A stretch of 32,000 bases of DNA from Methanothermobacter sp. (GTDB lineage: Archaea > Methanobacteriota > Methanobacteria > Methanobacteriales > Methanothermobacteraceae). The notes under the pieces are model-generated. The model worked only from the letters and a program-made list of their open reading frames with translations. It had not been told where the DNA came from and did not search any database. This document shows, in pieces, positions 2,016 through 31,520 of the stretch. The position numbers and the translations under genes are program-made. How positions within the stretch are numbered: position 1 is the first letter of the stretch; the number at the start of each line of letters is the position of its first letter. The stretch covers positions 51,224-83,223 of the forward strand of contig NZ_JASFYG010000002.1 of the NCBI RefSeq assembly GCF_030055435.1, read 5' to 3'.

Positions 2016-3665
2016 CTATCTCAGAATGGCACCTGTATCTGCTGAACCTGCGAGTTTCCTGTAGCGTGCAAGCCATCCCTTAACGTGGCGTTCTGGTTTT
2101 TCTGCAGATTCGATCCTTCTTCTGATCTCATCTTCTGTCAGATCAACCTCAAGTTTCCTTGAGGGTATATCTATCCTTATTGTGTCCCCATCTCTCACAG
2201 CCGCTATGGGTCCATTTTCCATTGCCTCGGGGGAGACGTGTCCCACGCAGGGCCCCCTGGTACCACCTGAGAACCTTCCATCGGTTATGAGGGCCACCCT
2301 TTCAAGCCCCATACCTGCAATTGCGGAGGTGGGGTTCAGCATCTCCCTCATACCAGGGCCCCCCTTGGGGCCCTCGTACCTTATTACGATGACATCACCC
2401 TCGGCTATATCTCCACTGAATATTGCCTCAACACACTCATCTTCACTCTCAAATACCCTGGCTGGGCCCTCATGGACCAGCATATCCTCTGCAACGGCCC
2501 CCTGTTTCACCACGGAGCCCCTGGGTGCCAGGTTACCCCTGAGTATGGCGAGGCCACCCTCCCGGTGGACCGGGTCATCTGGGGGCCTTATAACTGTGGT
2601 GTCACTCACCCTAGCATCCCTCATGTTCTCAGCGACGGTTTTTCCTGTGCAGGTTATGCAGCTGGTGTTGAGGTGATCCATGAGGGTTTTCATGACGGCC
2701 TGTATTCCCCCAGCCCTGTCAAGGTCTATCATCATATGATCCCCTGCCGGTGATATTGATGCTATGTGGGGTATTCTGCGGCTCAGCTCATCAAAGACGT
2801 CAAGGTTGATGCCAAGGCCCTCTATCTCAGCTGCTATGGCAGGGATGTGGAGTGCGCTGTTGGTTGACCCCCCAAGTGCAAGGTCCACCATCACCGCGTT
2901 TTCAAAGGCCTCCCTGCTCATTATATCTGTGGGTTTGAGGTTTTCCTTCACCATTTCCACTATCCTGTGACCTGAGAGCCTTGCAATCTGCCTCTTTTTT
3001 GAGCTTACAGCATGGGCAGTTGCGCATCCAGGGAGGCTCATACCCAGGGCCTCTGTGAGGCAGGCCATGGTGTTGGCTGTGAAGAGTCCTGCACATGACC
3101 CTGGACCTGGACAGGCGCATCTTTCGAGTTCGGCGAGTTCATCCTCACTCATTTCACCTGCACTCACTGCGCCTACACCCTCATATACATTTATGAGGTC
3201 AACCTTCCTTCCCTGGAACTCTCCTGGTAGCATGGGGCCACCGGTGACCACTATTGATGGTATGTCAAGTCTTGCAGCGGCCATCAGCATACCCGGTACT
3301 ATCTTATCACACGTTGGAAGAAGGACAAGTCCGTCAAGGGCATGGGCCATTACCATGCTCTCCACGGTATCTGCGACTATCTCCCTTGATGCAAGGGAGT
3401 ACTTCATGCCCTCATGGTTCATGGCTATTCCGTCGCATATGGCCATGGTGTTGAATTCAAATGCAACTCCACCTGCAGCGTTGATTCCGGCCCTGACCTC
3501 ATCTGCAAGTTCCCTAAGGTGGAGGTGGCCTGGCACGATATCCGTGTAGCTGTTGGCTATCCCTATGAATGGCTTTTCAAAGTCCTGGTCTGTCAGGCCA
3601 CATGCCCTGAGGAGGGAGCGGTGGGGCGCCCTCTGTATTCCCCTTTTTATGGTATCACTTTTCAT
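2016..3665 (-). CDS. ilvD: Dihydroxy-acid dehydratase
   Basis: Track ORF 2016..3710. IlvD/Edd hallmarks are present ([41 protein letters not shown]). ATG 3665 ([19 protein letters not shown]) matches the usual IlvD N-terminus. The Asn/Asp-rich 15-aa extension upstream is probably not translated. Confidence 0.9.
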
Positions 3666-7836: not shown

Positions 7837-9654
7837 ATGAGGATACTGTTAATTCACTCTGATTACCTGGAATACGAGACAAAGAACAAAACAGGGATAG
7901 CGGAGGAAATACCTGAAGATAAAATGAAGGGACACTTCACTGAGTCCCTTGTGGTCTTCACAGCGGTGGAGGCTGAGGATGAGGAGAATCCGGATTCAGT
8001 CATTGAAAATGCGGTAAATGAGATAGTGAGAGTTTTTGGCGACGTTAAGGCTGATAATGTTGTTATATATCCATACGCGCACCTCAGCTCTTCACTGAGC
8101 TCTCCGAAGACAGCCCGCAGGGTTCTTGAGGGAATGGAGGAGGCACTGAGGGAAAGGGGACTTGAGGTCTCAAGGGTCCCCTTCGGCTGGTACAAGGCAT
8201 TCAGAATATCCTGCAAGGGTCACCCCCTATCGGAGCTCTCAAGGACCATAAGGCCGGAACCCCTCAAAGAGGAGGAGGAATCAGAGGAATCAGAGTGGTT
8301 CATACTATACAAGGGCCAGAAAATCAGACCAGAGGAATTTGAGTTCACAAGCAGGGACCTTGAAAACCTTGTGAAGTATGAACTGGGTGTGCTCGAATCA
8401 TCCGGAGAGGAGCCACCACACGTTAGACTCATGAGGGAGAAGGGCCTGGCGGATTATGAGCCATCAGCCGATGTGGGACACCTCCGATGGTACCCCAGGG
8501 GAAGGCTGATAAGGGATCTTCTTGCAGACTACGTTTACATGCTCGTAACCAGTGAGGGGGCGATGCCGGTTGAGACCCCCATAATGTATGACCTTGAGGA
8601 CGAGGCCATCAGGGTCCATGCAGAGAAGTTCGGTGAAAGGCAGTACAGGATGAAGAACAAGAAGGAACTCATGCTGCGATATGCATGCTGCTTTGGGGCC
8701 TTCAGGATACTCTCAGATTCCTTCCTCACATGGAAGAATCTCCCCGCCTCAATATATGAACTCTCCACCTACAGCTTCAGGCTTGAGAAGAAGGGTGAGG
8801 TGGTTGGCCTCAAAAGGCTCAGGGGCTTTACAATGCCCGACCTTCACACTGTATGCGCCGACCTTGAACAGGCCCTCACCGAGTTTGCAGGGCAGGTGGA
8901 GATGTGCATGAAGACCGGTGAGGACCTCCAGGTGAACTATGAGGTGATATTCAGGGCTACCAGGGATTTCTATGAGGAGTACTCTGACTGGGTGCACTCA
9001 GTGGCCGATAAGATAGGAAAACCAATACTACTTGAACTTCTACCCTCAAGAAAGCACTACTGGATTGCCAAGATGGACTTCGCAGCCATAGATTACCTTG
9101 GAAGGCCAATAGAGAACCCAACAGTGCAGATAGATGTTGAGAGTGGGGAAAGGTTTGGCATAACCTATGTTAACAGTGATGAGGAGGAGGTGAACCCCAT
9201 AATCCTCCACTGCAGCCCAACAGGGAGCATAGAGAGGGTTATCTGCAGTTTACTTGAAAAGACAGCCATTGAAATGGATGAGAAACCACCCATGCTACCT
9301 GTCTGGCTTTCACCGACACAGGTAAGGGTGCTTCCAATTTCCGAGCGCCACCTCGAATTTGCAGAGTCCCTTGTATCAGAGATGACTGCAAATGATGTGA
9401 GGGCGGACCTTGACGACAGGGCAGAGACCCTTGGTAAGAAGATAAGGAACGCTGCACAGGACTGGGTACCCTACGTTGTGGTTGTGGGTGACAGCGAACT
9501 GGAGGGCAAACTCACAGTTAACATCAGGAGCACAGGTGAAAAGGTTCAGATGGATCTCCATGAGCTCATCGAACTCGTCAGATCAGAGACCCAGGGGATG
9601 CCATTCAGAAGGCTACCCCTCCCTGTCAGACTTTCAGAGAGAATCAACTTCTAA
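7837..9654 (+). CDS. thrS: Threonyl-tRNA synthetase, archaeal type with N-terminal editing domain
   Basis: 605-aa ORF. The N-terminus [19 protein letters not shown] is the archaeal ThrRS editing-domain start, followed by a class II catalytic core and a C-terminal anticodon-binding region. AGGTGA ribosome-binding site upstream. Confidence 0.9.
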
Positions 9655-9674: not shown

Positions 9675-9698
9675 TCTTATAAGTTATAACTTATAAGA
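9675..9698. promoter_or_regulatory. Perfect 24-bp palindrome TCTTATAAGTTATAACTTATAAGA, candidate centromere/operator upstream of parA
   Basis: I checked the reverse complement by hand and it equals the forward sequence. Further TTATAAGTT / CTAAATT / CTAAGTT iterons follow to about 9727. The element lies 65 nt upstream of ATG 9763 and overlaps the AT-rich stretch where a TATA box would sit. Confidence 0.6.
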
Positions 9699-9762
9699 TA
9701 TAATTTATAAGTTCTAAATTCTAAGTTCCAAGTGATCATCCTAATCAGTTGATGGTGATTAA

Positions 9763-10530
9763 ATGGGAGAGATAATTTCAATCATAAACCAGAAGGGTGG
9801 CTGTGGCAAGACAACAACCGCGGTGAACCTCTCAGCAGCCCTTTCACTCCTTGAGAGGAGGGTGCTGGTGGTTGACATGGACCCCCAGGGTAACGCAACA
9901 ACAGGGTTCGGTGTGAATAAATCTGAACTGGACTCAACCATCTACACAGTACTCAGCAGAAAGGCATCCCTCAGGGATGTGATACTGCCAGCCGAACTCG
10001 AGGACCTTTACCTTGCACCCAGCAACATATCCCTGAGCGGTGCAGAAATCGAACTCAGCAGCGAGATAGGCTACCACGCCATCCTCAAGGAGGCCCTTGG
10101 GGACGTGAGGGATGAATTCGATTACATATTCATAGACGCCCCGCCGTCACTGGGGATACTCACACTCAACGCCCTCGTGGCATCTGACAGTGTCATAATA
10201 CCAATACAGGCAGAGTACTATGCCCTCGAGGGAATGGCCGACCTCCTCAGGACAATGAACCTTGTTGAGGAACGTCTCCAGAGTCCCTGCCCCATAAAGG
10301 GGATACTCATAACCCTCTATGACTCGAGGACACGCCTTGCAAGGGACGTGCAGAGGGAGGTTGAAAGGTTCTTTGGTGAAAGGGAGAACATCTTCAGAAC
10401 AAGGATACCGAGAAACGTACGCCTTGCAGAGGCCCCAAGTCATGGAAAACCATGCATCACCTATGACCCTGAAAGCACGGGAACGGGGGCCTACATGAAA
10501 CTCGCAGCTGAAATACTGGATATGGAGTGA
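9763..10530 (+). CDS. parA: ParA/Soj/SegA-family partition ATPase (deviant Walker A)
   Basis: 255-aa ORF. IINQKGGCGKTTTAVNLSAAL is the deviant Walker A KGGxGKT. It also has DMDPQGNAT, FIDAPPSLG, and no N-terminal HTH (small ParA type). GGTGAT ribosome-binding site upstream. Confidence 0.85.
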   Translation: MGEIISIINQKGGCGKTTTAVNLSAALSLLERRVLVVDMDPQGNATTGFGVNKSELDSTIYTVLSRKASLRDVILPAELEDLYLAPSNISLSGAEIELSSEIGYHAILKEALGDVRDEFDYIFIDAPPSLGILTLNALVASDSVIIPIQAEYYALEGMADLLRTMNLVEERLQSPCPIKGILITLYDSRTRLARDVQREVERFFGERENIFRTRIPRNVRLAEAPSHGKPCITYDPESTGTGAYMKLAAEILDME

Positions 10531-10534
10531 TATA

Positions 10535-10834
10535 ATGGCACAGAAGAAGGGCCTTGGGATGGGACTCGATGCACTCATCCAGTCAAGGACAAGGAAGGAA
10601 GTGAAGGAGACCTCTGACTCAGTGGCCGGAGATGTGCAGGTTGAGGCTGTTATAAGGGAGGTTAAACGCAACCCCCGCATAACCCTCTGGTCTGCAAGGT
10701 CTGCAGCGGTACTCCGGTACCTGAAAAAGACACAGCCAGAGTTCAGCATAAGCAGGGAGGCATCGAACCTCATAGAAAGGGCCGTGAAGGAGAAGTACCC
10801 TGAAATATGGGAAATGTTCTCTGAACTCCAGTAA
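10535..10834 (+). CDS. 99-aa partition adaptor candidate: ParB-type N-terminal peptide plus putative ribbon-helix-helix (SegB/ParG-like)
   Basis: Starts 4 nt after parA with its own GGAGTGA ribosome-binding site. The N-terminus MAQKKGLGMGLDALI matches the conserved ParB/Spo0J N-terminal GLGxGLxAL peptide. There is no ParB CTPase box or HTH. The C-terminal part RITLWSA-SAAVLRYLKK-ISREASNLIERAVKEKY has a strand-helix-helix pattern, which is my inference. Confidence 0.6.
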   Translation: MAQKKGLGMGLDALIQSRTRKEVKETSDSVAGDVQVEAVIREVKRNPRITLWSARSAAVLRYLKKTQPEFSISREASNLIERAVKEKYPEIWEMFSELQ

Positions 10835-10835
10835 T

Positions 10836-11960
10836 TCAATCGCTCTTATTCCAGCTGCTGAGGGTTGTCTGGGATCCATCAAGGTATATGAAGGGTTCAG
10901 CCCTGCCCAGCCTCACCCCCATTCCCTTCAGGATATCCGGGGTGAGGTTAACCTTAGCCCTCAGTTCAATTATTTTTCTGGCCGACCTTGGTCCTATTCC
11001 AGGAACCCTGATGAGTTCATGATAGGGGGCGGTCTTGAGGTCCACCGGGAAGATATCCATCTCCATGGCTGCGGCGTACTTTGGATCCACAGAGGTGTCC
11101 AGGTAGCCCCCACTGAACCTCAACTCATCAACACCGAAATCATAGGACTTCAGGAGCGCGTCTGTCTGGTAAAGTCTGAAGACACGCCTGGGGTCTGCTT
11201 CGGCCCTTTTCTCAAGTGCAGTCCCTTCAATGGGCTGAAAACCACTGAAGTACACCCTCCTGAGGTAATATTTATCGTAGATCCACTTAACACGTTTAAC
11301 TATATCCTCATCTGTTTCATCAACAGCCCCAACCATCAGCTGGGTGCTCTGACCTGAGGGCGCAAGTTCAGGGTGTCTCCTCTTGAACCTGCTGATCCAC
11401 CTCATTCTCCGCAGGATGTCAACACTGTAGTCCTTGGTGGATGAAAGTTCATCAAGGCCATCCCTGGTCGCGGTCTCAAGGTTGATGCTCACACGACTTG
11501 CAAGTTCCATGGCCCTTCTTACGGTGTCCATGGATGAGCCCGGTATGATCTTGAGGTGTATGTAACCGCCATAACCCTCAAGTCTTAGGATTCTGAGTGT
11601 CTCCAGGAGCTTCTCCATGGTTTCATCAGGGTCCCTGCTCACCCCAGAGCTGAGGAAGAGTCCATCAACGTAGCGCCTCTCATAGTAGTCAAGGAATATC
11701 CCTGCAACTTCCTCCGGCTTCAGCTCAACAGGCTCTTTCTCTGCGCTGTTTATACAGTACCTGCAGTCGTTGCAGCACCTGTTGGTGAGCAGAACCTTGA
11801 AGAGGGGGACCCTGCAGCCCCTGTAACTGGTGTAGTAGATACCCGGCAGCGAAGGGTTCCGCTGGGAGGGGTCTGCACTGTAGTCGCAGAGGTCAAACTG
11901 GGCACTGTCACTCAGCACCCGGACCCTTTCAGCAAGACTCATGGTGAATAATATGTCCAT
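10836..11960 (-). CDS. Radical SAM protein with C-terminal helix-hairpin-helix (putative DNA modification/repair radical SAM family)
   Basis: 374-aa ORF. LLTNRCCNDCRYCIN is a CxxxCxxC radical SAM cluster. The C-terminus ELIRVPGIGPRSARKIIELR is an HhH motif. Alternative start ATG 11942 (MSLAERVRVL). Confidence 0.75.
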   Translation of the reverse strand: MDILFTMSLAERVRVLSDSAQFDLCDYSADPSQRNPSLPGIYYTSYRGCRVPLFKVLLTNRCCNDCRYCINSAEKEPVELKPEEVAGIFLDYYERRYVDGLFLSSGVSRDPDETMEKLLETLRILRLEGYGGYIHLKIIPGSSMDTVRRAMELASRVSINLETATRDGLDELSSTKDYSVDILRRMRWISRFKRRHPELAPSGQSTQLMVGAVDETDEDIVKRVKWIYDKYYLRRVYFSGFQPIEGTALEKRAEADPRRVFRLYQTDALLKSYDFGVDELRFSGGYLDTSVDPKYAAAMEMDIFPVDLKTAPYHELIRVPGIGPRSARKIIELRAKVNLTPDILKGMGVRLGRAEPFIYLDGSQTTLSSWNKSD

Positions 11961-13059: not shown

Positions 13060-14415
13060 ATGAGACTTGTACTTGCAGGGACAGGGAGCGCAGTTGGCAA
13101 GACCACCATAGCGACCGGGATAATGAGGGCACTCTCCGATAGGGGCATCCAGCCCTTCAAGGTGGGTCCGGACTACATAGACCCATCATATCATACCATG
13201 GCCACAGGCAACATCTCAAGGAACCTCGACTCCTTCTTCATGACAGATGCCCAGATAAGGGAGGCCTTCACAAGGGCAATGAAGATATCAGGGGCCAGAA
13301 TGGGTATAATAGAGGGTGTTAGGGGACTGTATGAGGGTATAAGTGCAACCGGGGACACTGGAAGTACAGCTTCAGTTGCAAAGGCCCTTAAGGCCCCGGT
13401 GGTTCTCATAATAAATTCGAGAAGCCTTGTTAAAAGCGCGGCGGCCATGGTGCTGGGTTTCAGGTCCCTTGATCCTGAGGTTAAAATCAGGGGGGTTATC
13501 CTGAACCAGGTTAAGAACAGGAGGCACTACCTCAAGACAAAGGAGGCTGTGGAGGAACTCACAGGCACTGAGGTGGTGGGGGGAATACCAAGGAGCGCAG
13601 AACTGGAGGTTGAGCAGAGGCACCTTGGACTTGTACCTGCCGTTGAAAGGGAGCAGATAGCATCCTACATTGAGAGGTGGGGCAGTGCAATGGAGGAGTA
13701 CCTGGACCTTGAGGCCCTTGAGGATATAATGGCATCTGCGGGGAAAATTGATGGGAACAGGGAACCCCTCTGGCGGAGGGAGAACAAAAGGAAGGTTAAA
13801 ATAGGCGTGGCATTTGATGAGGCCTTTAACTTTTATTACAGGGAGAACATAGAGGCACTTGAGGATAACGGGGCTTCAGTTGTCTACTTCAGCCCCCTCC
13901 ATGATGAGGAGCTTCCTGATGTTGACGCGGTATACATAGGGGGCGGCTACCCTGAGGTATTTGCAGGGGAACTTGAATCCAACAGATCCATGAGGATGTC
14001 GGTGAGGAGGTTTCACGCAGACGGCAGACCCATCTTCGGGGAATGTGGCGGCCTGATGTACCTGATGAGGTCCATTGATGGGCGCGAGATGTGTGGTGTG
14101 TTCCCCTACGATGCTGAGATGACAAAAAAGGTCCAGGGACTGAGCTACGTGATCTCTGAGGCGGTCTCTGACAACCTGATAACAGGGGAGGGGGATGTGT
14201 TCAGGGGGCATGAATTCCACTACTCAAGGGTCTCAGTCACCGGAGATGCGCAATTTGCCTTCAGGGTGCTCAGGGGAAGGGGCATAATGGACTACATGGA
14301 TGGAATAACCTCTGGATCGGCCCTTGCAAGTTACGTGCACATACATGCAGCATCATGCCCCAACTTTGCCGCGAACTTCACAAGGAATGCATGGGAGCTC
14401 CAGGATGAGGTTTGA
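13060..14415 (+). CDS. cbiA: Cobyrinate / Ni-sirohydrochlorin a,c-diamide synthase (CbiA/CfbB family amidotransferase)
   Basis: 451-aa ORF. N-terminal P-loop [12 protein letters not shown] and a C-terminal GATase-1 nucleophile elbow [11 protein letters not shown] cannot distinguish the cobamide (CbiA) from the F430 (CfbB) paralogue by eye. Confidence 0.85.
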
Positions 14416-27229: not shown

Positions 27230-27892
27230 ATGATAAGGATTGATCCACACATACACACGGTATACTCAGGGGATGCAAGGGGAACACCACGGGATGTGCT
27301 GAAGAGGGCATCCCATGTGGGCCTCGATGCAGTTGCGATTGCAGACCACAATACAATGAAGGGATCATGGCTTGCAATGGAGGACTCAGCAGAGTTTGGG
27401 GTCACGGTGGTCCCTGCAGTGGAGCTCAGCACATCCGCCGGTCACATAGTGGCACTGGGTGTGCAGGAGGAAATAAAGAGGGGCCTCACACCTGCAGAGA
27501 CCCTGGATGAGATACACTCACAGGACGCACTTGCCATAATCCCACACCCATTTGTCAGGTACAGAAAGGGACTCTTTGTGAACGAGAGAAACCTCCGTGT
27601 TGATGCAGTTGAAACCCTTAACTCCCGCTACATAGTTGGGTACTCCAACTGGAGGGCGAGAAAATTCGCAAGAAAGAGGGGCATCCCTGAGATAGGTGCA
27701 AGCGACGCACACTTCGTGGAGGCCGTTGGAAGCTCATTCACGATTGTAGAGTCTGAAAATACGGCTGATGATATAATTGAAGGTATAAAGAGGGGTAGAA
27801 CCAGGCCAGAGGGAAGAAGGACACCTCTTCCACTGATTGTGAGGGAGGTAATCAACAAAAAAATCATAGGCAGGATGAGAAATGATATCTGA
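27230..27892 (+). CDS. PHP-domain metal-dependent phosphoesterase
   Basis: 220-aa ORF. IDPHIHTVYSGD, AIADHNT and HPF are PHP His/Asp motifs. AAGGTGG ribosome-binding site upstream. Confidence 0.75.
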   Translation: MIRIDPHIHTVYSGDARGTPRDVLKRASHVGLDAVAIADHNTMKGSWLAMEDSAEFGVTVVPAVELSTSAGHIVALGVQEEIKRGLTPAETLDEIHSQDALAIIPHPFVRYRKGLFVNERNLRVDAVETLNSRYIVGYSNWRARKFARKRGIPEIGASDAHFVEAVGSSFTIVESENTADDIIEGIKRGRTRPEGRRTPLPLIVREVINKKIIGRMRNDI

Positions 27893-28673
27893 TCTTCAGA
27901 AGTTCCTGGAGAGCAACTTCTTCTACCTCCACCCTGGCTACACACCCCTCAACACGGTTGTTTTCGGCCTTGTACTCGGGGCTGTTGTTCTCATCATACT
28001 GAGGATGTTCAGGTGGCTTAAAAAGGACCCCAGGGAACTCCTGGTGCCACTGCTTCCCTTCATATTTCTAGGGTCAGGTGCAAGGGCCCTTGTTGATAAT
28101 GGAGTCTATCCACTCACCCATCTCCTTGTGACCCCAGGCATATACATCCTTGTGGGACTTACGGCAATAGCAACGCTTCTATTCTCAGTTAAACTTGAGA
28201 AACTTTATGGATGGGATTACAGAAAGCTTGTATTTGCTACAGGGGCGGTTCTTTCCATTCCAAACATCATAAACATGCAGAAAATTAATGCCGTACCATT
28301 TTTCTCTGTACTGGGAGTGTTCATGGCATCGGCAGTCCTTCTCTATATAATAAGTATTAAATGGGAACTTCTAAGGGAGAGGATGAACCTCTATGTGGTA
28401 TACGCGCACATTTTTGATGCATCCTCAACCTACGTTGCGGTTGACCTCTATGGCTATGCTGAACAGCATGTCCTGCCATCGGCATTCACGGCCCTGACCG
28501 GCACTGCCCTTGTGATGTTCCCCCTCAAGATAGCGGTCATACTGGCGGCTCTCTATTCCATTGACAGGTACGTTGAGGAGCCAGGGGACTCGGCTCTACT
28601 TAAACTTGTGATATTCATACTTGGCCTTGCACCGGGCCTCAGGAACTTTTTGAGTCTCAGCATGGCGGTTTAA
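27882..28673 (+). CDS. Archaeal DUF63-like polytopic membrane protein
   Basis: 263-aa ORF with about 7 hydrophobic helices. The start overlaps the PHP gene stop by 11 nt. The family assignment is from memory of the N-terminal pattern and is moderate to low. Confidence 0.5.
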   Translation: MISDLQKFLESNFFYLHPGYTPLNTVVFGLVLGAVVLIILRMFRWLKKDPRELLVPLLPFIFLGSGARALVDNGVYPLTHLLVTPGIYILVGLTAIATLLFSVKLEKLYGWDYRKLVFATGAVLSIPNIINMQKINAVPFFSVLGVFMASAVLLYIISIKWELLRERMNLYVVYAHIFDASSTYVAVDLYGYAEQHVLPSAFTALTGTALVMFPLKIAVILAALYSIDRYVEEPGDSALLKLVIFILGLAPGLRNFLSLSMAV

Positions 28674-28703: not shown

Positions 28704-28727
28704 CCCTTCTTCTAACTTTTAAGTTAT
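28704..28727. repeat. Second copy of the parA-upstream palindrome core (exact 18-mer TAAGTTATAACTTATAAG) with a flanking AACTT/AAGTT half-site
   Basis: aacttttAAGTTATAACTTATAAGtc. The 18-mer at 28710..28727 is identical to 9680..9697. It lies in the intergenic region between the DUF63 gene and leuA. Confidence 0.6.
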
Positions 28728-28809
28728 AACTTATAAGTCTGCTGTGTAAAAGCTTTTAATTGTGGCAGCATATAGATCATGATAAAAGGCCAGACCACGG
28801 GGAATTTAA

Positions 28810-30327
28810 ATGTACATAGAAGAGGTTAAACCGGAAATGAAGCTACCTGAGACGGTTAGAATATTTGACACAACACTAAGGGACGGTGAGCAGACACCTG
28901 GAGTGGCGCTCACGGTGGATGAGAAGATATGCATAGCAAGGAAACTGGACTCCCTTGGAGTTGACACAATAGAGGCAGGGTTTCCTGCAGCCTCCCCGGG
29001 GGAGATGGACTCGGTAAGGAGGATAGCTGACCTTGATCTTGATGCGAATACCTGTGGTTTGGCAAGGGTGCTCAGGGAGGACATAGACGCTGTTATTGAC
29101 TGCGGCGCTGATTACATACACACCTTCATAGGGACCTCACCCCTCCACAGGAAGTACAAGCTCAAAATGTCCCCTGAGGAGATAATAGACAGGGCGGTAT
29201 TTGGGGTGGAATATGCGGTTGAACATGGGCTCAGGGTGGAATTCTCTGCCGAGGACGCCACGAGGACAGAATTTGATTACCTTGTGGAGGTATACAGGGC
29301 CGCAGAGGATGCAGGGGCTGATATGATAAATGTGCCGGACACAGTTGGGGTGATGATACCCCGGGCCATGAACCACCTCATAAGGGGCCTCAGGGATGAG
29401 GTCAGGACACCCATAAGCGTCCACTGCCACGATGACTTTGGACTGGCCGTTGCAAACTCTCTTGCAGCGGTGGAGGCCGGCGCATCACAGGTACATGCAA
29501 CTATCAACGGGCTCGGTGAAAGGGCAGGAAATGCAGCCCTTGAGGAGGTTGTGATGGCCCTCATAACCCGCTATGACCTCCCACTCACCATAAAGACAAC
29601 GGAACTTGTGAACATCTCGGAATTCGTATCAAAGATAACAGGGGTTAGGATGCCCCCCAACAAGGCAATCGTGGGTGAAAATGCCTTTGCGCATGAGGCA
29701 GGTATACACGTCCATGGGGTTCTTGAGAAGGCAGAGACCTATGAACCCATAACCCCTGAGATGGTTGGCCACAAGAGGAGGATAGTCCTCGGCAAACACA
29801 CAGGGGCCAACGCCCTCAGATCAAAGCTTCAGGAATACGGTATAGATATGAACGAGGACCAGTTCTGCACCCTCTATGAACAGGTCAAAAGACTCGGTGA
29901 TAAGGGTAAAAGGATCACTGACGCAGATCTTCGGGCAATGGCGGTCACGATCCTTGGAAAGGCAACAAGGGAGATCGTGAAGCTTGAGGGCATAGCGGTG
30001 ATGACAGGTGAGAGTGTGATGCCAACAGCCACAGTTAAGCTGAGGATAGGAGATGAGATCAAGACAACAGCAATGACCGGTGTGGGACCAGTTGATGCGG
30101 CCATAAACGCCATACAGAGTCTTGTAAGTGAAACAGCAGATATAGAACTTGATGAATACAACATAGAGGCAATAACAGGAGGTACCAATGCCCTTGCAGA
30201 GGTCTTCGTTGTCATGAGTGACGCCGAAGGCAACAAGGCAACAGGAAGATCCACAAGGGAGGATATAGTAATGGCGAGTGTGGAGGCGGTTCTCGATGCA
30301 ATCAACAAGATCCTGAGCCTCAAATAG
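28810..30327 (+). CDS. leuA: 2-isopropylmalate synthase (LeuA/CimA family; [11 protein letters not shown] favours LeuA)
   Basis: 505-aa ORF with [50 protein letters not shown] and a C-terminal LeuA-type regulatory domain. Alternative start ATG 28837. Confidence 0.85.
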
Positions 30328-30335
30328 GTGTTTCG

Positions 30336-31520
30336 ATGGAGCCAGTATCAACATGTAAACTCTTCGGGGCTGTAAGGGCTGTTTCAGGCATCCGCAATGC
30401 CGTACCGCTCATCCACGGCCCCAGGGGCTGCGCATACCACATTGGATACCTTCTGAAGGCAAGGGGAGGTAAAAGGATAAGGGTTCTATCAACAGAACTC
30501 ACTGAATCAGACGTGGTATTTGGAGCCACCGATAAACTCAAAAAGGTCATAATTGACGCTGACAGAACCCTTAAACCGGAACTCATAGCTGTTATGAGCT
30601 CCTGTGCAACAAGCATAATAGGTGAGGATATAGGTAGGGCTGCAGAGGAGGTTAAGGGGGAACTTGATTCTAAGATCATAACCATCAGTGCAGGGGGTTT
30701 TGAGTCAAACCAGGGCGAAGGATATCTCGAGGTTATGATGGCACTCCTTGAGTCCATTGCAGCTGATGCGAAACCATCAGATGAGCCATCAATCAACATC
30801 ATAGGTGAGTTCAGGGGCGGCCCCGACCTCAAACATATTGTGGATACCCTTGGCAGGATGGGTGTTTCTGTGAACTGTGTTCTTACATCCGGGAGCACAG
30901 TCGGTGATATTGAGGGGATTTTGTCCGCCCATCTGAACTATTCCTTCTGTGATGTATCAGGGATAGGGCCCTGCAGGTTTCTTGAGAAGGAATTTGGGGT
31001 ACCCTTCATCCACCACCCCATCCCCCTGGGATTCTCAAACACCCTAAGGTTCTATGAGGTGATACTTGAACACCTCAGCATTGATTACCCCCTTCAGGAT
31101 GAAATCGGTGAATACGCTGAGGAAAGGGATCGTCTGAAATCGGAACTGGAGGGTGTGAGGGTTGGTATAGTCTCAGGGCCCACAAGGGCTGTTGGACTCG
31201 CTGGATTTGTAAGTGAACTTGCAATGAAACCGGCTCTGGTGGCAATGGACATGATTGGTGAGTACACACTTGAGAACCTCTCTGAAACTGGCCTGAGGTC
31301 GGAGGTTCTGGTTGGGGCTGATCTCTCTGAGCTGGAGGATGCGCTTATCAGGAATGAACCTGAGGTCATACTCGGTGGAGTTGCAGAGACACGGTTTTCA
31401 GAATCACTTGGAGCGCCACTTATTGATGTTATGCATGGCTCTGCCCTCACTGCAGGGTTCAGGGGGGCCGCTGTAACTGGGGGCAGGATACTTGAAGCTG
31501 TTAAGTCCAGAAGTTATTAA
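30336..31520 (+). CDS. cfbD: Nitrogenase NifD/E-like protein, probable Ni-sirohydrochlorin a,c-diamide reductive cyclase subunit CfbD (NflD)
   Basis: 394-aa ORF. CKLFGAVRAVSGIRNAVPLIHGPRGCAYH is the nitrogenase component-1-type N-terminal pattern. It is a short single subunit in a methanogen context. AGGTG ribosome-binding site upstream. Confidence 0.72.
   Translation: MEPVSTCKLFGAVRAVSGIRNAVPLIHGPRGCAYHIGYLLKARGGKRIRVLSTELTESDVVFGATDKLKKVIIDADRTLKPELIAVMSSCATSIIGEDIGRAAEEVKGELDSKIITISAGGFESNQGEGYLEVMMALLESIAADAKPSDEPSINIIGEFRGGPDLKHIVDTLGRMGVSVNCVLTSGSTVGDIEGILSAHLNYSFCDVSGIGPCRFLEKEFGVPFIHHPIPLGFSNTLRFYEVILEHLSIDYPLQDEIGEYAEERDRLKSELEGVRVGIVSGPTRAVGLAGFVSELAMKPALVAMDMIGEYTLENLSETGLRSEVLVGADLSELEDALIRNEPEVILGGVAETRFSESLGAPLIDVMHGSALTAGFRGAAVTGGRILEAVKSRSY

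Follow-up and report, generated by a model that had tools for sequence, protein, structure and literature searches.

A probable SegAB chromosome-partition cassette in Methanothermobacter with a Soj-type ATPase and flanking heptad arrays

A two-gene cassette in the genome of Methanothermobacter sp. is very probably the local orthologue of the archaeal SegAB chromosome-partition system, and a working mechanism can be proposed for it. The cassette resides in a stretch of 32,000 nucleotides, called the window hereafter. The assignment draws on homology, on linkage of the two genes, and on the conservation seen in motifs and sites. To our knowledge, all experiments on SegAB have been carried out to date in Sulfolobales, and none in euryarchaea. 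SegAB orthologues in Methanobacteriales, M. thermautotrophicus included, have already been named (PMC5120986, PMC12139799), and euryarchaeal orthologues are treated by Kalliomaa-Sanford et al. 2012, as far as that work is represented in PMC5120986 and PMC8682754. Falling in a family already named, the cassette does not represent a novel type of system. The description as a SegAB-like cassette in an earlier, sequence-only reading was understated, since the profile match to 7DUV and the synteny mark the pair as a member of that family; the accompanying claim of a hybrid adaptor uncharacterised in methanogens was overstated, because Methanobacteriales SegAB pairs are published (PMC5120986, PMC12139799). 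[quoted passage not shown]

The segA (parA) gene lies on the plus strand at 9763..10530, and encodes a Soj-type deviant Walker A ATPase of 255 aa. The hexanucleotide GGTGAT (9754..9759, plus strand), located 4–9 nt 5' of the start codon, resembles a Shine-Dalgarno sequence and may function as such. segB (10535..10834, plus strand) begins 4 nt past the stop codon of parA, and encodes a protein of 99 aa with the N-terminus MAQKKGLGMGLDALI, predicted to be a centromere-binding protein of the SegB family by homologue search, alignment, profile and BLASTP. The Shine-Dalgarno-like motif GGAGTGA (10524..10530, plus strand), presumably serving segB, covers the segA stop codon, and this overlap hints at translational coupling within one operon. 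A convergent radical-SAM/HhH gene (10836..11960, minus strand) ends 1 nt beyond segB. Spacing of the two genes, GGAGTGA motif and convergent neighbour had all been reported from the letters, and the coordinates agree. Judged by its conservation, the 99-aa ORF is a real gene: 313 homologues were found in the database, relatives reside in 223 species-level genomes, and N-terminal and C-terminal blocks of the product are invariant in the family alignment.

The pairing of the two genes also holds in relatives. ParA is encoded directly 5' of segB, on the same strand, in 76/76 related loci featuring enough upstream DNA for the check. Most of these loci share the order thrS-segA-segB-(convergent rSAM) across genera, with ParA identities of 60–99%. 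The neighbours in the window are housekeeping genes (thrS, ilvD, mtd, hisB, leuA-like), and integrase or other mobile-element genes were not found among the window ORFs scanned (at least 150 aa).

The product of segB is, by profile and pairwise comparison, a true homologue of Sulfolobus SegB. The family profile matched 7DUV (7duv_A, E = 1.7e-14) and 7DV2 (7dv2_A, E = 1.9e-10) in the PDB, and BLASTP against Sulfolobus SegB gave 35% identity over 54 aa (E = 1e-13). Sulfolobus SegB is a ribbon-helix-helix (RHH) centromere binder, of which the N-terminal 21–33 residues stimulate SegA (PMC8682754). The SegB signature K/R-D/N-P-K/R-I-G/T-V/L-W-S-Y/P-P/E (PMC12139799) is matched at 9 of 11 positions by the residues R-N-P-R-I-T-L-W-S-A-R of the window protein; the last two positions (A, R) differ throughout the Methanobacteriales branch. 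The motif [KRNH][DN]PR[IV][ST][LV]WS was found in 119/120 homologues. The putative DNA-binding domain (residues ~38–95; 10646..10819, plus strand) is made by a helix, the NPRITLWS ribbon strand and three helices, and can be aligned with the RHH domain crystallised from Sso SegB, R48 replacing Sso K52. It is separated from the N-terminal motif by a short, poorly conserved linker (residues 16–37; 10580..10645, plus strand; pLDDT <50 at residues 20–30), which in other genera has grown to ~90 residues, mostly Lys/Ser/Glu-rich.

From the homology to SegB we infer an RHH fold for the window protein. An RHH DNA binder had been proposed earlier, and the profile match to the solved RHH domain speaks for it; the AlphaFold monomer does not show the fold. 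The model is of low confidence (pLDDT 67.7), features helices at residues 31–45, 54–62, 74–87 and 89–94, and leaves the ribbon strand unformed; Foldseek with this low-confidence model returned SegB as top match (E = 0.89). The 99-aa protein had no significant match in Pfam or NCBIfam, and weak matches to Rap1a and AAA_lid_6 (E about 0.1) were dismissed as noise. Among the adaptor families put forward in the sequence-only reading, SegB was recovered by profile search, and ParG and Omega_Repress were not detected at E <= 1 in Pfam. Neither ParB_N nor HTH_ParB was found in the protein at E <= 1 in Pfam, or in NCBIfam; as the protein also measures only 99 aa, it is not a ParB. The ParB/Srx CTPase domain (GERRxR), the HTH parS-binding domain and the C-terminal dimerisation domain of bacterial ParBs are missing, as had been recognised, and an RHH domain is predicted in their place. 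CTP-dependent clamping and sliding would be impossible for a protein devoid of the ParB/Srx CTPase domain.

The ATPase is, by sequence comparison, a canonical bacterial Soj-type ParA and not a Sulfolobus-type SegA. It matches Pfam AAA_31 with E = 7.6e-64. The Walker A motif KGGCGKTT spans residues 11–18, which leaves no room for an N-terminal HTH, in agreement with the small, HTH-free ParA noticed at the outset. Catalytic residues (K11, K16; Motif 2 D38/D40/N44; Walker B D125) are kept in all 75 readable loci, save for a change of N44 to Ala in one locus (L067). Bit scores are 247 to M. xanthus ParA (8RAY), 208 to Thermus Soj, 72 to Sso SegA (7dut_A) and 44 to ParF; in one alignment, identity is 49–51% to bacterial Soj versus 29% to Sso SegA. 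Among ParA subfamilies, the closest similarity of the window ParA is not to Sso SegA. The non-specific DNA-binding arginine of bacterial ParA/Soj is R238 in M. xanthus and R189 in B. subtilis; R220 of the window protein, in the segment PRNVRLAEAPS, aligns with M. xanthus R238 (8RAY), and is predicted to have the same role.

The pocket that receives the ParB peptide is also retained. In M. xanthus it is formed by V116, L150, L152, L155, L187 and L192 (PMC12462528). The equivalent positions of the window ParA are I96, L130, I132, L135, L167 and L172, 6/6 hydrophobic, and are invariant or conservatively replaced across 76 loci. The site proposed to receive ParB R13 in M. xanthus includes Y81, E82, D110 and E117 (PMC12462528). 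Two of these four positions are kept (Y61 = Y81, E97 = E117) and conserved across the 76 loci; the other two, T62 and S90, are not acidic.

A putative ligand for this pocket lies at the start of SegB. Residues L7-G-M-G-L-D-A-L-I15 (10553..10579, plus strand), with K4 and K5 just upstream, correspond to the ParB-type ParA-binding motif LGxGLxxLI. This motif recurs in 117/120 homologues and at all loci (76/76), and the family alignment shows no variation at L7, G8, G10, L11, A13, L14 and I15. The ParA-binding motif of M. xanthus ParB hinges on four essential hydrophobic positions, L11/L15/L18/I19 (PMC12462528), all of which are matched; the resemblance to the ParA-contacting peptide of ParB/Spo0J, pointed out earlier, is thus sustained position by position. 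The N-termini of ParBs that adjoin the nearest Soj genes of bacteria feature ALGKGLGALL, GLGKGLGALL and RLGRGLGALL.

It is conceivable, at a clearly lower probability, that the cassette is a SegAB system in which the ParB-like N-terminus of SegB is convergent or coincidental, and the ATPase is activated otherwise, along lines proposed for Sulfolobus SegA or ParG-ParF, through a different surface or a lysine/arginine finger provided by K4/K5. Distant ParA systems may indeed bind their partners in other ways (PMC12462528), but the window ATPase is not distant, being ~50% identical to bacterial Soj. The Sulfolobales SegB N-terminus, MSELDFLLKKK, features only the second half of the motif, LDxL(L/I) followed by basic residues, as convergence would have it. 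The central basic residue of ParB (R13 in M. xanthus) is Met in the window SegB; this position is K or R in 65/76 loci, and Met or Leu in 11/76. Such laxity, like the non-acidic residues at ParA positions 62 and 90, fits convergence, while the invariance across the order of the four hydrophobic and two glycine positions, the conservation across the 76 loci of the six pocket residues along with Y61 and E97, and the agreement with the ParBs found next to the closest Soj genes argue against it. Profile evidence is marginal: a 20-column peptide profile against the PDB found as best match residues 4–15 of Thermus Spo0J (E = 0.062), a value which convergence would accommodate, and the single 24-aa N-peptide gave no match to the PDB by phmmer. 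When the central motif residue (K/R versus M/L) was compared with ParA positions 62 and 90, position 90 was acidic only with K/R partners (16 versus 0), a co-variation discounted as evidence because numbers are small and sequences related.

Short tandem repeats mark the DNA upstream of segA. Eight heptads with the consensus (G/C)TTATAA are arrayed at 9676..9732, from -87 to -31 relative to the segA start codon, and form a candidate segS and operator; the units are CTTATAA GTTATAA CTTATAA GATATAA TTTATAA GTTCTAA ATTCTAA GTTCCAA. The array includes a perfect 22-bp palindrome (9676–9697), and overlaps the likely TATA-box region. Four additional heptads (CTTCTAA CTTTTAA GTTATAA CTTATAA G; 28709..28737), 19 kb from segAB, make up a candidate second segS. 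They are intergenic, flanked by a DUF63 membrane-protein gene on one side and a leuA/cimA-like gene on the other. By chance, a window would be expected to contain the double-heptad pattern 0.01 times. CTTATAAGTTATAACTTATAAG was found at 9676–9697 (0 mismatches), 9690–9711 (2 mismatches) and 28716–28737 (1 mismatch), with 0 matches expected from shuffles; the two DNA sites singled out from the letters are therefore real and non-random.

TTATAA(G/C) heptad arrays flank segAB in nearly all Methanobacteriales. TTATAA-S-TTATAA was found within 300 bp upstream of parA in 69/71 loci featuring at least 310 bp of upstream DNA, and in 71/76 loci when this length filter was not applied. Motif density is 10.1/kb in these 300 bp upstream of parA versus 0.35/kb elsewhere in the loci, and upstream matches number 216 versus 1.3 in shuffles. 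Runs of at least 3 heptads mark 62/71 loci, versus at most 2 in shuffles. The 76 loci contain 415 matches in all: the 300 bp preceding parA account for 221 of these and the 200 bp following segB for 132, and just 1 falls inside the genes. TTATAA repeats resemble archaeal TATA boxes, and their conservation upstream could be partly a promoter signal. A scan of metagenomes for an exact 18-mer retrieved 120 loci, about 20 of which adjoin segAB, and exposed sites just downstream of segB; it is uninformative on genome-wide distribution, since an AT-rich 18-mer recurs by chance and the other loci are unassignable. SegB sites experimentally defined in Sulfolobus have the same 7-bp register, being TCTAGA-S-TCTAGA for Sso SegB, as defined by ChIP (PMC12284271), and 3x[AGNGTNN] for Saci SegB (PMC12139799). 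The methanogen arrays share the hexamer-S-hexamer layout of the ChIP-defined site, and are probably the SegB binding sites, or centromere.

The same arrays could be read as plain operators, the small protein being mainly an RHH repressor that acts on the operon and, at the distal site, on the leuA-like gene, and the ATPase serving in some other positioning or regulatory task, such as cell division or replication control, or the positioning of protein cargo. RHH proteins are often repressors, Soj/MinD relatives have many roles other than segregation, the proximal array runs into the likely promoter, and the distal one is also intergenic, upstream of a gene. This is nonetheless improbable. Arrays are found also downstream of segB in 42/76 loci, where a role as operon operator is impossible; the protein has a conserved tail predicted to contact the ATPase, which in turn retains the arginine by which segregation ParAs typically bind DNA non-specifically. 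Deletion or overexpression of the Sulfolobus homologue leads to segregation defects (PMC12284271, PMC12139799). Repression largely overlaps with a partition role anyway, as type Ib systems combine autoregulation with centromere function.

If the cassette works as a SegAB partition system, SegB would dimerise through its C-terminal RHH domain, and the NPRITLWS ribbon of the dimer would enter the major groove of tandem (G/C)TTATAA heptads. Loading of the 8-heptad array and of at least one distal 4-heptad site may assemble a multi-dimer partition complex; at the proximal array SegB would probably also autoregulate the operon, since this array overlaps the promoter region. SegA bound to ATP would dimerise and bind the nucleoid non-specifically via R220. 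The SegB tail may dock at the pocket used by bacterial ParB, triggering ATP hydrolysis and release, so that the partition complex would trail a retreating ParA-ATP gradient, in a diffusion-ratchet or DNA-relay fashion. In this scheme the DNA-binding half would work as in SegB, ParG or omega, the ATPase-activation half as in bacterial ParB-ParA. A bacterial-style ratchet is not to be assumed, because Sulfolobus SegAB behaves differently from ParAB, SegA forming a bipolar figure (PMC12139799).

The window cassette and the SegAB pairs of Sulfolobales (S. solfataricus SSO0034/SSO0035; S. acidocaldarius) share homologous SegB proteins, in which DPKIGVWS corresponds to NPRITLWS, and a layout of N-terminal tail, variable linker and RHH domain, the last predicted in the window protein. 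In both, segB is immediately downstream of, and coupled to, a ParA-family gene, and repeats in 7-bp register immediately precede segA and recur at other chromosomal positions. In contrast, Sso SegA is a shortened, divergent ParA of 220 aa, in which the Y61 segment, a block of 14 residues and the DNA-binding motif PRNVR are all missing, whereas the window ParA is full-length (255 aa) and has both Y61 and PRNVR. The N-tail carries the full ParB-type LGxGLDALI in the methanogen versus MSELDFLLKKK in Sulfolobales, and the heptad is TTATAA-S versus TCTAGA-S or AGNGTNN. The gene upstream of segA is thrS in the methanogen, with no segC-like gene, unlike Sulfolobales. The hosts differ too, a rod-shaped methanogen dividing by FtsZ versus coccoid cells dividing by ESCRT-III.

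With bacterial ParABS (Soj/Spo0J; M. xanthus, T. thermophilus, B. subtilis) the window shares the ParA subfamily, including catalytic motifs, non-specific DNA-binding arginine and ParB-peptide pocket, and a partner gene located directly downstream, whose product starts with (A/G)LG(K/R)GLxAL(I/L). The centromere differs, being a 16-bp parS palindrome in ParABS and a candidate heptad array in the window. The pNOB8 AspA-ParB-ParA system of a Sulfolobus plasmid similarly pairs a ParA of bacterial type with a site-specific DNA binder peculiar to archaea. It has three components, including a real ParB-like adaptor and the winged-HTH AspA, whereas a single 99-aa protein appears to unite adaptor peptide and DNA binder in the window.

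Type Ib plasmid systems (ParF/ParG of TP228; delta/omega of pSM19035) offer an analogy in working logic. They too combine a small Walker ParA with a dimeric RHH binder, the flexible N-tail of which stimulates the ATPase, and rely on cooperative binding to iterated short repeats doubling as operator, features that may apply to the window by analogy. The sites of the pSM19035 omega protein are 7-bp heptads too, and these may be direct or inverted. The earlier label of type-Ib-like holds for this logic, and not for descent: the cassette is chromosomal, vertically conserved and syntenic, it belongs to neither the ParG nor the omega family, and its ATPase is nearer to chromosomal Soj than to ParF. 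That the cassette is a leftover plasmid or provirus module integrated in the chromosome, as the classic type-Ib layout of small ParA, RHH adaptor and iterated repeats might suggest, is very improbable and was rejected on account of the housekeeping neighbourhood free of mobile-element genes among the ORFs scanned and the synteny kept across genera, the lack of a ParG or omega match in Pfam adding to the case.

Chromosome segregation in archaea is poorly understood. In the largest SegB-carrying euryarchaeal group, ATPase and activating peptide resemble the bacterial ParA-ParB interface, and the centromere binder is SegB; the combination leads to a CTP-free model which is directly testable. It is about as likely as not that euryarchaeal SegAB represents a distinct chimeric branch, made by a Soj ATPase, a genuine ParB-type helix and an archaeal RHH body reading TTATAA-S heptads, and covering Methanobacteriales and at least some Thermococcales. 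The ParB-type helix would be grafted onto, or inherited with, the RHH body, replacing the CTP-dependent ParB clamp. Were this true, the interface for ParA-ParB activation could be carried over from one centromere binder to another, unrelated one, and would be common to domains of life; a partner that neither clamps nor slides in a CTP-dependent way could drive a Soj-type ParA; and the Sulfolobales pair could be the derived form. Two published ideas would be questioned: a tie of SegB to spherical cells, and its acquisition by Methanobacteriales from Sulfolobaceae. Methanobacteriales are largely rod-shaped methanogens, and the wide diffusion of SegB in this order tempers the proposed link to spherical cells. 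TTATAA-S heptads are the predicted euryarchaeal segS motif; a ChIP and motif study of 2025 found no segS near segAB in Thermococcus, and methanogens were outside its motif search. The SegB family is devoid of Pfam or NCBIfam models, and its members are annotated as 'hypothetical' or, wrongly, as 'AAA family ATPase'.

The two genes of the cassette are adjacent on the forward strand. segA/parA (9763..10530, +) encodes a 255-aa ParA with a deviant Walker A motif (KGGCGKTT, residues 11-18) and no N-terminal extension, and matches the Pfam AAA_31 model at 7.6e-64. segB, a 99-aa ORF (10535..10834, +), begins four nucleotides past the parA end, and its start is preceded by a GGAGTGA sequence at 10524-10530. 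The thrS gene (7837..9654) is located upstream of segA. At the opposite side, a convergent radical-SAM gene (10836..11960, -), featuring a C-terminal helix-hairpin-helix, ends one nucleotide past segB. Its hit to TIGR03916 ('putative DNA modification/repair radical SAM protein'), at E = 1.9e-88, scores 297 bits, below the curated cut-off of 343, and the gene is found tail-to-tail with segB in most Methanobacteriales loci. No Pfam or NCBIfam model, ParB_N and HTH_ParB included, matches the 99-aa protein. All that the sequence-only reading had stated on the two genes (coordinates, Walker A, GGAGTGA, convergent neighbour, lack of ParB domains) was borne out.

The 99-aa ORF is conserved as a gene: among ~5.8 billion proteins searched, 313 homologues were identified, by source name nearly all from Methanobacteriales (Methanothermobacter, Methanobacterium, Methanothermus, unnamed MAGs); Methanobrevibacter and Methanosphaera are represented among the loci of the genome scan. 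Homologues are annotated as hypothetical or, wrongly, as 'AAA family ATPase', the wrong label being attached to several long-linker forms in NCBI records. In an alignment of 28 diverse members, an invariant block (L-G-x-G-L-(D/E)-A-L-I), located few residues from the start, is separated by a linker from a nearly invariant C-terminal block of ~55 residues (NPRI(T/S)LWSxxSAAVLRxLxxTxPxFSISxEASxLIxxAxxxKYPxxW). The two blocks were found in 117 and 119, respectively, of the 120 listed homologues. The linker measures 0 to ~90 residues according to genus, and is mostly rich in Lys, Ser and Glu, as in Pro (proteins P0024, P0027, P0029, P0035 and others); similar linker expansions have been described in Sulfolobales SegB.

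By homology, the 99-aa protein is a SegB. The alignment profile matched one family only among all PDB sequences, S. solfataricus SegB (7duv_A, E = 1.7e-14; 7dv2_A, E = 1.9e-10), over the DNA-contacting strand (DPKIGVWSY vs NPRISLWSA) and the subsequent helices; in BLASTP the window protein and S. solfataricus SegB share 35% identity over 54 residues (E = 1e-13). SegB crystallizes as a ribbon-helix-helix dimer whose strand recognizes the centromere-like site, and stimulation of the SegA ATPase requires its disordered N-terminal tail of 21-33 residues (PMC8682754). Euryarchaeal homologues carry Arg in place of strand residue Lys52 (PMC8682754), the counterpart being R48 in the window protein, which fits 9 of 11 positions of the published signature K/R-D/N-P-K/R-I-G/T-V/L-WS-Y/P-P/E (PMC12139799). 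The ribbon-helix-helix fold proposed from sequence is thus predicted through homology to a solved SegB, and structure modelling adds little. The monomer model (pLDDT 67.7) features helices 31-45, 54-62, 74-87 and 89-94 in SegB order and no strand, and Foldseek ranked 7duv_A first with E = 0.89 only, as expected of a fold that forms solely in an intertwined dimer.

The ATPase is, by sequence, a bacterial-type Soj rather than a Sulfolobus-type SegA. PDB searches scored M. xanthus ParA (8RAY) at 247 bits, Thermus Soj at 208, H. pylori Soj at 193-197, and S. solfataricus SegA (7DUT) at 72, over residues 4-163 only. The nearest relatives outside the family, among 1.84 billion cluster representatives, are 45-54% identical, and those with a name are bacterial (Selenomonas Soj, Synergistaceae, Longimicrobiales). 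In an alignment including the real S. solfataricus segA-segB locus, identity to the window ParA is 61-68% for other euryarchaeal SegAs, 49-51% for bacterial Soj, and 29% for S. solfataricus SegA. In contrast to the window protein, the latter lacks the segment bearing Y61, a 14-residue block and the PRNVRLAEAPS motif. K11/K16, D38/D40/N44, D125 and R220 are retained in the window ParA. R220 corresponds in the 8RAY alignment to M. xanthus R238, mutation of which abolishes non-specific DNA binding (PMC12462528).

The ParA-binding motif of M. xanthus ParB spans residues 11-19 (L11-G-R13-G-L15-x-x-L18-I19), where L11, L15, L18 and I19 are individually essential (PMC12462528). The receiving ParA pocket is formed by V116, L150, L152, L155, L187 and L192, and the R13 site by Y81, E82, D110 and E117 (PMC12462528). 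The corresponding SegB stretch, L7-G-M9-G-L11-D-A-L14-I15, matches at the four hydrophobic and both glycine positions, invariant in the family alignment, in keeping with the ParB-like peptide noticed in the sequence-only reading. The pocket, located by the 8RAY alignment offset (window residue + 20), reads I96, L130, I132, L135, L167 and L172, and Y61 and E97 are retained; Y61, E97, L130, L167 and L172 are invariant in 76 loci, and only I, V, L or M occur at the other pocket positions. When the SegB N-peptide was compared, as a 20-column profile, with 177,635 PDB sequences, the best hit was to Thermus Spo0J, at residues 4-15 (KPSGLGRGLEAL; E = 0.062). In the three nearest named bacterial Soj loci, the gene directly downstream encodes a canonical ParB (ParB_N + HTH_ParB), with N-termini VAKTRALGKGLGALL, VANKAHGGLGKGLGALL and MMNKRDRLGRGLGALL. 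Sulfolobales SegBs all begin with MSELD(F/L)(L/I)(L/I)x(K/R)(K/R)K, which corresponds to the second half of the motif only, whereas Methanobacteriales SegBs carry the full ParB-type motif. The sole Thermococcaceae homologue recovered (locus L067, DUII01000070.1, a MAG; 2582-3621) is of the same variant, its SegB featuring ALGRGLEAII and NPRITLWS next to a Soj-type ParA 60% identical to that of the window.

The likeness to ParB may also be convergent, the ATPase being activated by another route. We regard this as unlikely. The ParB-type reading is weakened in that the central motif residue, K or R in 65 of 76 loci, is M or L in 11 (Met in Methanothermobacter), and in that ParA positions 62 and 90 are non-acidic in the window. 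No convincing co-variation of the central residue with these two positions was observed in the 76 loci. The positive charge could instead come from K4 and K5, which immediately precede GLG and which the earlier reading had singled out for substitution.

Heptads of (G/C)TTATAA type mark the surroundings of the cassette. Eight in tandem (CTTATAA, GTTATAA, CTTATAA, GATATAA, TTTATAA, GTTCTAA, ATTCTAA, GTTCCAA) are found upstream of segA at 9676-9732, and include a perfect 22-bp palindrome. A four-heptad copy resides 19 kb from segAB at 28709-28737, in the intergenic spacer that separates a DUF63 membrane-protein gene (27882-28673) from a leuA/cimA-like gene (28810-30327), and could either bind SegB as a further site or act as operator for the leuA/cimA-like gene. 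The double-heptad pattern, for which chance predicts 0.01 occurrences per window, occurs in these two places only. Scored as TTATAA-S-TTATAA with up to one mismatch, the motif is conserved throughout the order: 69 of 71 loci carry it in the 300 bp preceding parA, at 10.1 matches per kb vs 0.35 elsewhere; upstream regions hold 216 matches, shuffles 1.3 in total. The longest consecutive run has a median of 3 heptads; 62 of 71 loci have a run of 3 or more, and shuffles never exceed 2.

Matches in the 76 loci number 415, of which 221 fall in the 300 bp before parA, 132 in the 200 bp after segB, and 1 inside the two genes. The operon is bracketed in 42 of 76 loci (as L015, L025 and L052), and copies just downstream of segB were also found in metagenome contigs (L093, L142, L168, L175, L187, L188). 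In Methanothermobacter the segB downstream spacer measures 1 nt and holds no heptad site. In the Thermococcaceae MAG, upstream repeats are degenerate (CTTATAAGTTCTGA...TTTATAACTT) and better matches lie downstream of segB. Sites on both sides make promoter elements alone hard to accept as explanation, and argue against a pair that is mainly an autoregulated operon with an ATPase devoted to another task, which we deem improbable. The S. solfataricus SegB ChIP-seq consensus is TCTAGA-S-TCTAGA; that study found no good site around Thermococcus segAB, and did not include methanogens (PMC12284271). In S. acidocaldarius, segS spans -25 to -6 relative to segA and consists of three heptads of the form [AGNGTNN] (PMC12139799). 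A 7-bp register is common to Sulfolobus sites and methanogen arrays, as are the palindromic hexamer and the single G/C; the hexamer itself differs, which fits the change of the ribbon strand from K-I-G-V to R-I-T-L. The array is a candidate centromere and operator, and a predicted SegB site.

SegAB was defined in S. solfataricus. A 2016 review had already noted the cassette in several euryarchaea, M. thermautotrophicus among them (PMC5120986), and a 2025 preprint lists 22 euryarchaeal SegBs, each adjoining a ParA-like gene, proposes transfer from Sulfolobaceae to the Methanobacteriales ancestor, and remarks that the euryarchaeal N-terminal domain is poorly conserved (PMC12139799). Our literature search found no experimental work on any methanogen SegAB. 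A scan of one genome per species revealed relatives in 223 genomes, 80 loci being retained; in 76 of 76 loci with enough upstream DNA, segB is directly preceded, on the same strand, by a ParA that shares 60-99% identity with that of the window, the co-occurrence which the sequence-only reading had proposed to check. Its SegAB-like assignment stands on SegB homology and this linkage, but its claim of novelty went too far, since the system had been named (PMC5120986, PMC12139799): the cassette belongs, as an uncharacterised member, to an established family and does not represent a novel hybrid adaptor. An integrated or stray plasmid module is ruled out as highly improbable by the thrS-segA-segB-(convergent rSAM) order common to most loci, the housekeeping surroundings (ilvD, mtd, hisB, fae-hps, leuA-like, cobyrinate/F430-type amidase and nitrogenase-like genes) and the lack of integrase, as of cdc6, among the scanned window ORFs, all 150 aa or longer.

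The analysis documents homology and gene linkage, together with a conserved motif, pocket and set of sites. We infer that methanogen SegAB binds DNA, stimulates its ATPase and serves segregation. SegB dimers would bind cooperatively to the heptad arrays, forming a partition complex and, as type Ib plasmid systems do, probably repressing the operon. ParA-ATP dimers would coat the nucleoid through R220, and the two flexible tails of each SegB dimer would dock in the two ParA dimer-edge pockets and trigger hydrolysis, as bacterial ParB does, the complex travelling up the ParA gradient. In vivo, the behaviour of Sulfolobus SegAB departs from that of ParAB (PMC12139799), so that a bacterial-style ratchet is a hypothesis specific to the Soj-type branch. 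Three features are apparently unreported: a Soj-type ATPase with an intact ParB pocket, the complete ParB-type motif of SegB, and the arrays of TTATAA-S heptads that flank segAB. Together they suggest a euryarchaeal branch intermediate between ParABS and SegAB. Methanobacteriales is an order of largely rod-shaped methanogens. The wide spread of SegB in it sits awkwardly with a proposed association of SegB with spherical cells (PMC12139799).

Three Methanobrevibacter- or Methanobacteriaceae-type segAB contigs come from MAGs labelled 'Clostridia bacterium' (L065, CALAUK010000157.1), 'Bacteroidaceae bacterium' (L070, CAVDAS010000003.1) and 'Methanomicrobiales archaeon' (L007, JBNGDB010000022.1), probably through binning contamination or mislabelling. 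In the window, a CobB/CobQ-type amidase gene (13060-14415, +) and a nitrogenase-component-1-like gene (30336-31520, +) are probably involved in cofactor F430 or cobamide biosynthesis. The former, with its CbiA/ParA-like P-loop domain, encodes a second ParA/MinD-superfamily member, unrelated to partition.
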